In this document: positions 30,433 to 30,942 of the stretch, piece after piece
Layout of the letters: every line of letters starts with the position of its first letter
How positions within the stretch are numbered: position 1 is the stretch's first letter
IMG/VR virus record: IMGVR_UViG_2718217862_000001
DNA length: 41,292 nt
Source: a virus
Lineage: Duplodnaviria; Heunggongvirae; Uroviricota; Caudoviricetes
Direction: 5' to 3' (one strand)
The notes under the pieces: generated by a model
The model's input: only the letters and a program-made list of their open reading frames with translations
Told to the model about the DNA's origin: nothing
The model's database searches: none
Translations under genes and position numbers: made by a program

Positions 30433-30458
30433 AAAAAACAAAACCCGCCGAAGCGGGT
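30433..30458 (-). terminator. Rho-independent terminator after hok
   Basis: Minus strand AACCCGC-ttcg-GCGGGTT followed by TTGTTTTTT. Confidence 0.5.
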
Positions 30459-30527
30459 TACGTGCGGGTGCGTTGAGGATGCCTGACACATCAGAGGTGG
30501 CGAGGGATTTCTCCCCCGCCAGGTCTC

Positions 30528-30683
30528 TTACTCCTCAGGTTCGTAAGCTGTGAAGACAGCGACCTCCGTCTGGCCGGTTCGGATTCGTACCTCGCAGAGG
30601 TCTTTCCTCGTTACCAGTGCCGTCACAATGACGGTTAAACAGATGACGATCAGGGCGATTAACATCGCCTTTTGCTGCTTCAT
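30528..30683 (-). CDS. hokD: Hok/Gef-family type I toxin (HokD/RelF-like)
   Basis: MKQQKAMLIALIVICLTVIVTALVTRKDLCEVRIRTGQTEVAVFTAYEPEE, 51 aa; RBS AAGGAG; in-frame 19-codon upstream extension may be mok-like. Confidence 0.8.
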   Translation of the reverse strand: MKQQKAMLIALIVICLTVIVTALVTRKDLCEVRIRTGQTEVAVFTAYEPEE

Positions 30684-30942
30684 AGCCTGCTTCTCCTTGC
30701 CTTTCGGCACGTAAGAGGCTAACCTAGATTTGCCGTTCATAGATTGAGCCTCAGATTAATGTTAAGCGTCTTGCAGGACGCGTAATGTTAACTGGGGCTT
30801 TTCTCTATCTGCCTTTTGGTGTTCATGCCTGAGACAGATAGCCTCAAGCACCCGCAGTCATTCTACTTAACTAAGATTTCCCCGCAAACCGTTTTTGTCC
30901 GGCACAGTAAATATCCAACTAAACCAATGGCGTTCGCTGTAT

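Follow-up and report, generated by a model that had tools for sequence, protein, structure and literature searches.

A probable complete hok/mok/sok cassette in the nin region of a lambdoid Escherichia coli prophage

What kind of locus is a hokD-type toxin gene that has its own terminator, no relBE in front of it and no obvious antitoxin? The question is raised by a short segment in a 41,292-nt stretch of viral DNA (IMG/VR record IMGVR_UViG_2718217862_000001; the whole stretch is called the window here). A preliminary description, made from the letters alone, placed a Hok/Gef type I toxin at 30433-30760 and found no convincing antisense Sok RNA beside it. One answer is that the toxin is an orphan. 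The other is that it belongs to a complete hok/mok/sok cassette, and this is almost certainly the right one. The cassette is of an already known and ordinary kind, the annotated hokD type, and the preliminary call was right but incomplete.

The toxin gene and its prophage setting

Three features concern the toxin itself.

30528-30683, minus strand: hok (hokD) coding sequence, 51 aa, MKQQKAMLIALIVICLTVIVTALVTRKDLCEVRIRTGQTEVAVFTAYEPEE
30693-30698, minus strand: hok Shine-Dalgarno sequence AAGGAG, 9 nt before the ATG (sequence reading)
30543-30545, minus strand: candidate TadA A-to-I recoding site, the Tyr47 codon TAC followed by G (TACG motif), Tyr to Cys (sequence reading)

Hok/Gef proteins were defined as peptides about 50 aa long that combine a hydrophobic helix near the N-terminus with conserved C-terminal residues, and the product of this gene shows all of these traits. 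Its C-terminal signature is TR..L.E..R.G..EVA, and every column that is invariant in HokD, HokW, HokC, HokB and R1 Hok is present. The match to Pfam HOK_GEF (PF01848) covers residues 6-47 and scores 82.9 bits (cut-off 22; E=1.2e-23), the match to PHROG 251 'MokW-like host killing' has E=2.8e-33, and the peptide equals K-12 HokD at 51/51 residues. The Pfam score and the Rfam score of the adjoining leader (E=6e-25) are far beyond chance. By these comparisons the peptide is assigned to the Hok/Gef toxins. The preliminary description had named HokD/RelF as its match and a search against the Hok family as the check to make; Pfam, PHROG and K-12 HokD all bear this out. The ribosome binding site AAGGAG that it had read is also in place, at 30698-30693.

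The RefSeq label for the coding sequence is 'type I toxin-antitoxin system toxin HokD' (WP_000813254.1). This is the only element annotated by RefSeq at the locus, where mok and Sok are absent from the annotation. K-12 HokD, the identical protein, is reported to be toxic when expressed (bioRxiv 10.1101/2025.08.07.668861). The candidate recoding site at Tyr47 aligns opposite Cys46 of HokB, and editing of the K-12 hokD mRNA has been reported at 6% (PMC12214031).

The host element is a lambdoid (lambda-like) E. coli prophage. By BLAST, a prophage of E. coli M217 matches the window from position 407 on at 99.98% identity, with three small indels. The minus-strand order runs from cro/cI-type regulators through replication genes and small nin-region ORFs to the hok locus, and then on to a Rem-like gene, DUF968 (YdfU-like), RusA, antiterminator Q, tRNA-Ile, lysis and head/tail genes. 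A dicB/DicF/ydfC module and int/xis occupy the other end of the prophage. This puts the cassette in the nin region, between the replication genes and DUF968-RusA-Q. The locus is also common. Its surrounding 561 nt have 100% identical copies in many complete E. coli genomes, and an identical copy of the locus is carried by the isolated phage vB_EcoS-640R1. At 80% coverage or more, a window-type locus is found in 2768 of 5426 complete E. coli genomes, with a median of 2 matches per genome and up to 10. Prophages are reported to be enriched about four-fold in hok genes (bioRxiv 10.1101/2025.08.07.668861).

A 135-aa GTG ORF (30082-30489) overlaps the hok terminator. It was rejected as an artefact because it has no Pfam match, because RefSeq calls just its 92-aa Rem-like part (30082-30360) and because the PHROG 1212 match is confined to residues 27-92 of that 92-aa product.

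The hok mRNA leader and the Sok gene

The remaining genes and signals of the cassette are listed next.

30860-30888, minus strand: putative hok promoter, with -10 TAGAAT at 30865-30860 and a weak -35 TTTGCG/TTGCGG at about 30888-30882 (sequence reading)
30436-30853, minus strand: predicted full-length hok mRNA, about 418 nt (5' end set by the first position of the Rfam sok model, 3' end by the terminator)
30528-30740, minus strand: mok frame, 70 aa, in frame with hok and ending at the same stop codon (ORF listing)
30749-30752, minus strand: mok Shine-Dalgarno sequence GAGG, 8 nt before the mok ATG
30432-30459, minus strand: intrinsic terminator, a 7-bp GC-rich stem with a GNRA-like loop and a T run (terminator scan and fold)
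30697-30725, plus strand: putative sok promoter, with -35 TTGCCT at 30697-30702, a 17-nt spacer and -10 TAACCT at 30720-30725
30732-30802, plus strand: predicted Sok antisense RNA, about 71 nt, with a 5' single-stranded tail, a hairpin at 30746-30800 and a UUUU tract (homology and fold)

One clue that the locus holds more than a toxin comes from Rfam. The sok model RF01794 matches 30678-30853 on the hok strand over its full length (1-157), with a score of 112.4 bits (gathering score 59; E=6e-25). The consensus of this model opens with GGGUGCUUGAGG and ends at the hok AUG; therefore what the model describes is the hok mRNA leader, and Sok is to be read from the complement.

The boundaries of the mRNA follow from an alignment with 933W hokW/mokW/sokW, K-12 hokC/mokC/sokC, K-12 hokB/mokB/sokB and an R1-type plasmid hok. 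The -10 of the putative hok promoter shares its column with TAGAAT in 933W, TATAAT in hokC, TAGGAT in hokB and TATGAT in the R1-type sequence, and it is placed 7 nt before the predicted transcription start, the G at 30853. The transcription unit would thus extend from about 30853 to about 30432, with a promoter reaching about 30888. The predicted full-length mRNA folds at -173.3 kcal/mol (z=-7.3), and 0/100 shuffles fold as well. The mok start at 30740 shares its column with the annotated starts of mokW and mokC. A 19-codon in-frame extension had already been put forward as mok-like; it is recovered here as a 70-aa ORF that opens with the ATG at 30740. The toxin's own rho-independent terminator was likewise correctly seen, as a hairpin (30459-30442) that begins about 68 nt past the hok stop and is followed by a T run. 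The extent first given to the locus, 30433-30760, stands in part: it covers the toxin and the terminator but leaves out the promoter and some 95 nt of the mRNA leader.

What of the antitoxin? The annotated sokW of 933W and the sokC and sokB of K-12 all map to the plus strand of the window, where they start at 30732 and end at 30802-30808. The 71-81 nt that begin at 30732 fold into a 5' tail, a long hairpin and UUUUCUCU (-33.3 kcal/mol, z=-5.6), and the predicted RNA is complementary to the mok Shine-Dalgarno sequence (GAGG, 30752-30749) and to the mok AUG. The putative sok promoter occupies the position of the R1-type TTGCGC-17-TATCCT. The arrangement TTGNNN-17-TAnnnT is present in most of 50 distinct Enterobacterales leaders, and a different sok -10 hexamer is found in the hokC-type leaders, in one Enterobacter chromosomal group and in a few others of the 50. 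The TTG of the sok -35 is contributed by the complement of the hok Shine-Dalgarno sequence, which is invariant in 95 related cassettes (see below). At the sequence level, an antisense Sok gene with its own putative promoter and terminator is present at this locus.

Why was it not noticed before? The sok -10, TAACCT, matches the consensus at 3/6 positions. When a generic sigma-70 promoter and terminator scan was run over 30300-31100, the hok promoter, the sok promoter and the Sok terminator all went uncalled, and the output consisted of the hok terminator and, on the plus strand, a site at 30308 that has no bearing on the locus. The promoters were missed because their hexamers fall below threshold, and the Sok terminator because its stem is long and imperfect. 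These misses are the reason for relying on homology to annotated or experimentally defined elements. The weak 3/6 -10 and the imperfect terminator stem probably also account for the initial doubt about Sok, a doubt that gives way to the Rfam match, the mapping of sokW, sokC and sokB, the position of the promoter and the fold.

Could hok still be an orphan here, a toxin without a cognate antitoxin RNA like the K-12 hokD remnant, with an upstream extension that means nothing? The scan of 30300-31100, which called no plus-strand promoter or terminator for Sok, is what might lead one to think so, as is the fact that the earlier reader found no Sok. However, an orphan would hardly be expected to give a 112-bit Rfam sok match, to have three independently annotated Sok RNAs map to 30732-30802/8, to keep the sok promoter in its conserved position and to encode a predicted Sok that forms a stable hairpin followed by a U tract. 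The very segment that is missing in K-12 is present in the window. An orphan toxin is therefore highly improbable.

The comparison with K-12 deserves a closer look. The hokD (relF) gene of the Qin cryptic prophage encodes a Hok protein identical to that of the window, is 98% identical in nucleotide sequence over 30697-30434 (from the hok Shine-Dalgarno sequence to the terminator) and has the same downstream neighbours, a rem-like gene and then ydfU/DUF968. There is no K-12 homology upstream of 30697. In K-12, relB-relE lie directly upstream of hokD, whereas the window is without relBE: in a BLAST comparison, the only parts of the K-12 Qin segment that match are hokD, the rem/ydfU side and the dic region, and the M217 annotation has no relB or relE. 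The preliminary description was correct on this point. K-12 hokD also lacks the hok promoter, the tac and ucb elements (below), the mok start, the Sok gene and the sok -10, all of which the window has. The locus is thus not of the K-12 relBE-hokD (relBEF) arrangement. Because K-12 homology ends at the hok Shine-Dalgarno sequence, K-12 is read from the sequences as a rearranged, derived and truncated copy, and the window as the intact ancestral cassette. This agrees with the view that the K-12 hok loci other than hokB have been inactivated by IS elements or rearrangements (PMC12214031). The K-12 relE-hokD junction itself is found in 1165 of 5426 complete genomes. In other words, the missing relBE was rightly reported, but it is not the anomaly.

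A predicted folding switch and its covariation

A hok/mok/sok cassette depends on more than its genes, and the following RNA elements can be located in the hok mRNA.

30842-30853, minus strand: tac (translational activator element), GGGUGCUUGAGG, at the mRNA 5' end (nt 1-12)
30825-30851, minus strand: predicted metastable 5' hairpin, formed by tac and the sequence just downstream of it
30794-30798, minus strand: ucb, the anti-Shine-Dalgarno of mok, GCCCC (predicted folds)
30714-30755, minus strand: predicted Sok-target hairpin, with the mok Shine-Dalgarno/dcb stem as its base and the apical loop ACGGCAAA
30715-30720, minus strand: dcb, AGCCUC, at the base of the Sok-target hairpin
30499-30520, minus strand: 3' UTR stem-loop GGCGGGGGAG-AAAU-CCCUCGCC, found in both the full-length and the truncated folds
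30465-30479, minus strand: fbi (fold-back inhibitory element), UCCUCAACGCACCCG, which pairs with tac (duplex prediction and MFE fold)

Closed full-length, open truncated and metastable nascent states have been described for the R1 hok mRNA (PMC9841398). The folds predicted for the window, which are thermodynamic only, reproduce all three. In the full-length MFE fold tac (30853-30842) pairs with fbi (30479-30465), just before the terminator hairpin, and the mok Shine-Dalgarno sequence is held by ucb. In the truncated fold (30853-30488, with fbi and terminator removed) tac pairs with ucb, as it does in the Rfam consensus structure, and the mok Shine-Dalgarno sequence is in the hairpin with dcb. 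This Sok-target hairpin folds at -14.7 kcal/mol (z=-3.5). The first 32 nt of the mRNA are predicted to form an 11-bp hairpin of -16.9 kcal/mol (z=-4.3), which would correspond to the nascent state. In the open mRNA, the Shine-Dalgarno/dcb hairpin has an apical loop complementary to the nucleotides with which the predicted Sok begins, in keeping with the 5'-tail-to-loop recognition described for R1. The 3' UTR stem-loop, in which 6/8 pairs show changes on both sides among 56 homologues, is presumed to be the 3' end protector of the truncated mRNA.

The switch includes the pairing of the two mRNA ends. Of the duplexes that tac can form with the 95-nt 3' UTR, the best has 12 bp with one bulge and an energy of -21.1 kcal/mol, a value that 0/1000 dinucleotide shuffles of the UTR reach (mean -12.7, sd 2.0). 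Cognate tac/UTR pairs average -19.9 kcal/mol versus -14.9 for combinations between different tac classes. Partners of tac were also surveyed in 57 distinct loci, obtained from 77 Hok-encoding loci (one genome per species) plus the window and the reference loci. Apart from a few disrupted or atypical loci, the best partner lies 41-71 nt past the hok stop, and it follows the tac variant: GGGUGC goes with GCACCC, GGCGC with GCGCC, GGGCGCC with GGCGCCC and GGGUGCC with GGCACCC.

How strong is the covariation? In a neutral MAFFT alignment the first six tac-fbi pairs are 97-100% paired across homologues, and the pair at tac nt 4 is C-G in 27 cases, U-A in 27, U-G in 1 and unpaired in 1. These counts come from few clades and stand for at least two independent events, not 27. 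The C-G/U-A switch at tac nt 4 occurs inside the hokB clade as well, so there must have been at least two. The second half of the helix (tac nt 7-12) changes register between subfamilies and is not taken as evidence; pairs 10-92 and 12-90 are about 50% unpaired. Judged by sequence comparison within these bounds, the tac-fbi end pairing covaries across homologues. It joins the homology of the elements, the promoter positions and the predicted conformational switch as a result obtained by computation.

How would such a cassette work? It very probably belongs to the hokD/hokW subtype and acts by the R1/hokW mechanism, to judge by its close relatives. From homology and structure prediction we infer its transcription, RNA processing, RNA half-lives, toxicity and biological role. 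A weak constitutive promoter would give rise to a stable mRNA of about 418 nt. In its closed form tac and fbi would be paired and the mok ribosome binding site held by ucb, so that neither translation nor Sok binding takes place. Slow 3' trimming would then remove fbi. This would let tac move to ucb and the mok Shine-Dalgarno sequence move into the dcb hairpin, whose apical loop would be the entry point for Sok. The unstable Sok of about 71 nt would pair across the mok start, block the translation of mok and of the coupled hok, and deliver the duplex to RNase III. If Sok synthesis stopped, Sok would decay, and Mok and Hok would be translated; possible triggers are prophage loss, shut-off of host transcription and prophage induction, the last as for hokW-sokW. 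The 51-aa Hok would insert into the inner membrane and collapse it. One caveat to this scheme is that the sok -10 and the hok -35 are poor consensus matches.

Relatives, role and the variable Sok recognition patch

The nearest characterised relative is hokW-mokW-sokW of the Stx2 phages 933W and Sp5 (VT2-Sakai). It is 91% identical to the window over 30899-30456, from the promoter through fbi, with the same order of elements and the same extended Sok hairpin, which is enlarged by an insertion of about 18 nt in comparison with sokC and sokB and brings Sok to 71 nt. The Hok of the window and HokW share 92% identity. Some stretches differ. The Sok 5' tail, mok codons 2-5 and target loop read GAACGGCAAAUC in the window and CUGAACACAUG in 933W, the Hok C-terminus is TAYEPEE in the window and VDYESEK in HokW, and the sequence past fbi, including the terminator, is not shared. 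The location differs too. In 933W hokW lies close to the late and tail-fibre genes at the right end, whereas the cassette of the window is in the nin region upstream of DUF968-RusA-Q. Its presence at a different phage site means that the cassette behaves as a mobile module.

The hokW-sokW pair has been shown experimentally to be a toxin-antitoxin system of type I (Takada et al., PMC8621323). HokW is toxic and localises to the inner membrane, and sokW is a 71-nt RNA with its own promoter that is detected by northern blot and counteracts HokW partly via RNase III and Hfq (PMC8621323). Both RNAs are present in lysogens. On RecA-dependent prophage induction sokW disappears and HokW is made, and deletion of hokW-sokW delays growth arrest and halves the phage yield (PMC8621323). 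By analogy, this pair is the best experimental guide to how the cassette of the window acts.

More distant relatives share the same plan. R1 hok/mok/sok (parB) has its architecture and every named RNA element in common with the window. The agreement extends to the 70-aa mok in frame with hok, to where the promoters lie, to the pairing of the mRNA ends through tac and fbi, and to the predicted folding switch. However, R1 Hok is only 41% identical to the Hok of the window, and tac is GGGUGC in the window and GGCGC in R1, with fbi changed to match. Moreover, R1 hok/mok/sok is plasmid-borne with proven post-segregational killing, whereas the cassette of the window is prophage-borne. The hokC (gef)/mokC/sokC and hokB/mokB/sokB loci are homologous over the whole cassette (74% identity for hokC), and their annotated Sok and mok starts coincide with those of the window in the alignment. 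They are core-chromosome loci with shorter Sok hairpins than the window has, and K-12 hokC is cut by IS186, 20 nt past the stop codon.

Conservation within the subtype was measured in 95 distinct hokD/hokW-type cassettes, comprising IMG/VR contigs retrieved by the tac pattern together with genome loci. The low entropy of tac itself is forced by that retrieval pattern and is not taken as evidence. Entropies for the other segments are as follows.

hok coding sequence: 0.075 (0.09 at third codon positions)
hok Shine-Dalgarno sequence / sok -35: 0.00
sok -10: 0.16
fbi: 0.13
30740-30726, with mok codons 1-5, the Sok 5' tail and the target loop: 0.79
30746-30726: 0.84

What if the cassette is intact but is merely a physiologically silent passenger of the prophage, with no killing or regulatory output in vivo? 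Pedersen and Gerdes reported that chromosomal hok/sok loci, namely hokA, hokB and hokC, gave no post-segregational killing and no activation by rifampicin (cited in bioRxiv 10.1101/2025.08.07.668861). Other K-12 hok loci are regarded as inactivated (PMC12214031), and both promoters of the window cassette are weak consensus matches. Silence nevertheless appears unlikely. Against it stand the low entropies of the hok coding sequence (0.075), the Shine-Dalgarno/-35 segment (0.00) and fbi (0.13) compared with 0.8-0.96 in the flanks of the 95 cassettes, as well as the compensatory tac-fbi change. In addition, the 91%-identical hokW-sokW is active, with a measurable phenotype on induction (PMC8621323), and chromosomal expression of R1 hok is toxic when Sok is missing (PMC9841398).

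If the cassette is active, what might it do? It could assist lysis on induction, stabilise the prophage or act in abortive infection. For the last of these, the mechanism would be unchanged: an infecting lytic phage would shut down transcription in the host, Sok would be lost through decay, and Hok would kill the cell ahead of the burst. When carried by a high-copy plasmid, R1 hok/sok does lower the plating efficiency and plaque size of T4 (cited in PMC8621323), and the four-fold enrichment in prophages mentioned above would fit a defence role. However, hok genes are not enriched beside defence systems (bioRxiv 10.1101/2025.08.07.668861), and the nearest characterised relative aids phage release on induction rather than defence (PMC8621323). 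Defence as the role of this cassette is therefore doubtful, albeit less so than silence.

One part of the cassette does not share in its conservation. The patch 30746-30726, which covers the opening codons of mok, the 5' tail of Sok and the top of the target hairpin, is hypervariable. It is as variable as the unrelated flanking DNA (entropy 0.8-0.96), and its mean pairwise divergence among the 95 cassettes is 33% versus 2.6% for the hok coding sequence. The hairpin occurs in 25 variants. The Shine-Dalgarno/dcb stem at the base is kept in all of them (99-100% paired); the differences lie in the loop and the upper stem. Because one stretch of DNA encodes the two partners, they stay complementary by default, and what changes is specificity alone. 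It has been observed that chromosomal Sok RNAs do not silence R1 hok (PMC9841398). We suggest, tentatively and with slightly more doubt than confidence, that the patch is under diversifying selection or frequent exchange, that hokD/hokW-type cassettes residing together in polylysogenic E. coli are mutually orthogonal and that the window carries one specificity allele. In other words, variation in the patch may insulate co-resident cassettes from one another.

What the locus offers is mainly a correction. It displays the intact ancestral state behind the well-known relBE-hokD arrangement of K-12, and adding the mok frame, the Sok RNA and the mRNA boundaries would complete the RefSeq annotation. 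If the patch is selected for orthogonality, it would also make a modest point about how near-identical type I toxin-antitoxin cassettes coexist in one genome.

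Prophage modules and the left edge of the window

A prophage of E. coli strain M217 is 99.98% identical to the window from position 407 onward. Positions 1-406 have no match to M217, which carries the group II intron gene ltrA at that place. A match to the ALIL pseudoknot, an IS3-family frameshift element, occupies positions 1-72 and is interrupted by the window edge. Two genes are marked as frameshifted in the matching M217 annotation. One encodes the HK97 prohead protease (about 18300-18898, minus strand) and the other is a small ORF of the nin region (31293-31609, minus strand). 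Despite these marks on prophage genes, an isolated phage, vB_EcoS-640R1, carries an identical hok region.

Other features of the prophage are:

23528-23821, plus strand: iss (increased serum survival), which encodes a bor-like lipoprotein
26596-26784 and 27060-27253, minus strand: STnc100-family sRNA, two copies in tandem (132 and 138 bits)
36176-37339, plus strand: Qin-like dic module comprising ydfC, DicF sRNA, dicB, and ydfD
36737-36788, plus strand: DicF sRNA (76.7 bits)

An IraM-like anti-adaptor gene (26235-26570) is flanked by the STnc100 copies, which are located downstream of tRNA-Ile and the antiterminator gene Q. The dic module is 96% identical to that of Qin, the K-12 cryptic prophage. 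The remainder of the prophage differs from Qin.

DNA flanking the hok cassette

A 135-aa ORF with a GTG start (30082-30489, minus strand) overlaps the hok terminator, but this is an artefact. The true gene is shorter:

30082-30360, minus strand: Rem-like protein, 92 aa (RefSeq WP_032155008.1; PHROG 1212)

Two E. coli genomes, PRO_A-1420 and PRO_A-1429 (locus L086), carry an IS200C insertion at 30437/30438, in the T run directly 3' of the terminator hairpin. Neither insertion disrupts the hok transcription unit.

Just upstream of the hok promoter is an AT-rich island (30925-31300), with a GC content of 33-38% vs 52-59% in the adjoining DNA. It contains an unannotated reading frame:

30943-31122, minus strand: 59-aa ORF that has GGAGG as its ribosome-binding site and contains two hydrophobic stretches (MKNALQFLFVAFWLFVSC...)

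Pfam and PHROG searches with this ORF returned no match. Only three phage records contain it, under the erroneous annotation 'hornerin'. Homology to 933W, the Stx2 phage that carries hokW-sokW, stops at 30899, which places the ORF outside the hok cassette.

A candidate editing site and cassettes in unexpected assemblies

One codon within hok is a candidate for A-to-I editing:

30543-30545, minus strand: TAC codon of Tyr47, which with the next base (G) makes a TACG motif

TadA is reported to edit about 6% of K-12 hokD mRNA in this way, recoding Tyr to Cys (PMC12214031). The TACG site reported to be edited in K-12 is intact in the window, and in a protein alignment HokD Tyr47 aligns with HokB Cys46.

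HokD or R1-type Hok cassettes were also encountered in assemblies labeled Veillonella parvula MAG, Acinetobacter idrijaensis, Xanthomonas pisi, Ferruginibacter, Streptomyces morookaense, Oscillibacter, Dysgonomonas, and Vagococcus (loci L018, L027, L033, L038-L040, L054, and L072). The majority are on very short contigs. These cassettes appear to be contaminants of the assemblies, of enterobacterial or plasmid origin.

The Sok recognition patch

Among 95 distinct hokD/hokW-type cassettes, one short segment is hypervariable on both strands while the rest of the cassette is conserved:

30726-30746, both strands: encodes the 5' tail of Sok, the first five codons of mok, and the apical portion of the Sok-target hairpin

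Any two cassettes of this set differ on average by 33% within the patch, compared with 2.6% in the hok coding sequence. The same cassettes contain 25 variants of the Sok-target hairpin, and its base stem, formed by the mok Shine-Dalgarno sequence and dcb, is kept in all 25. The patch may be a determinant of orthogonal Sok specificity.
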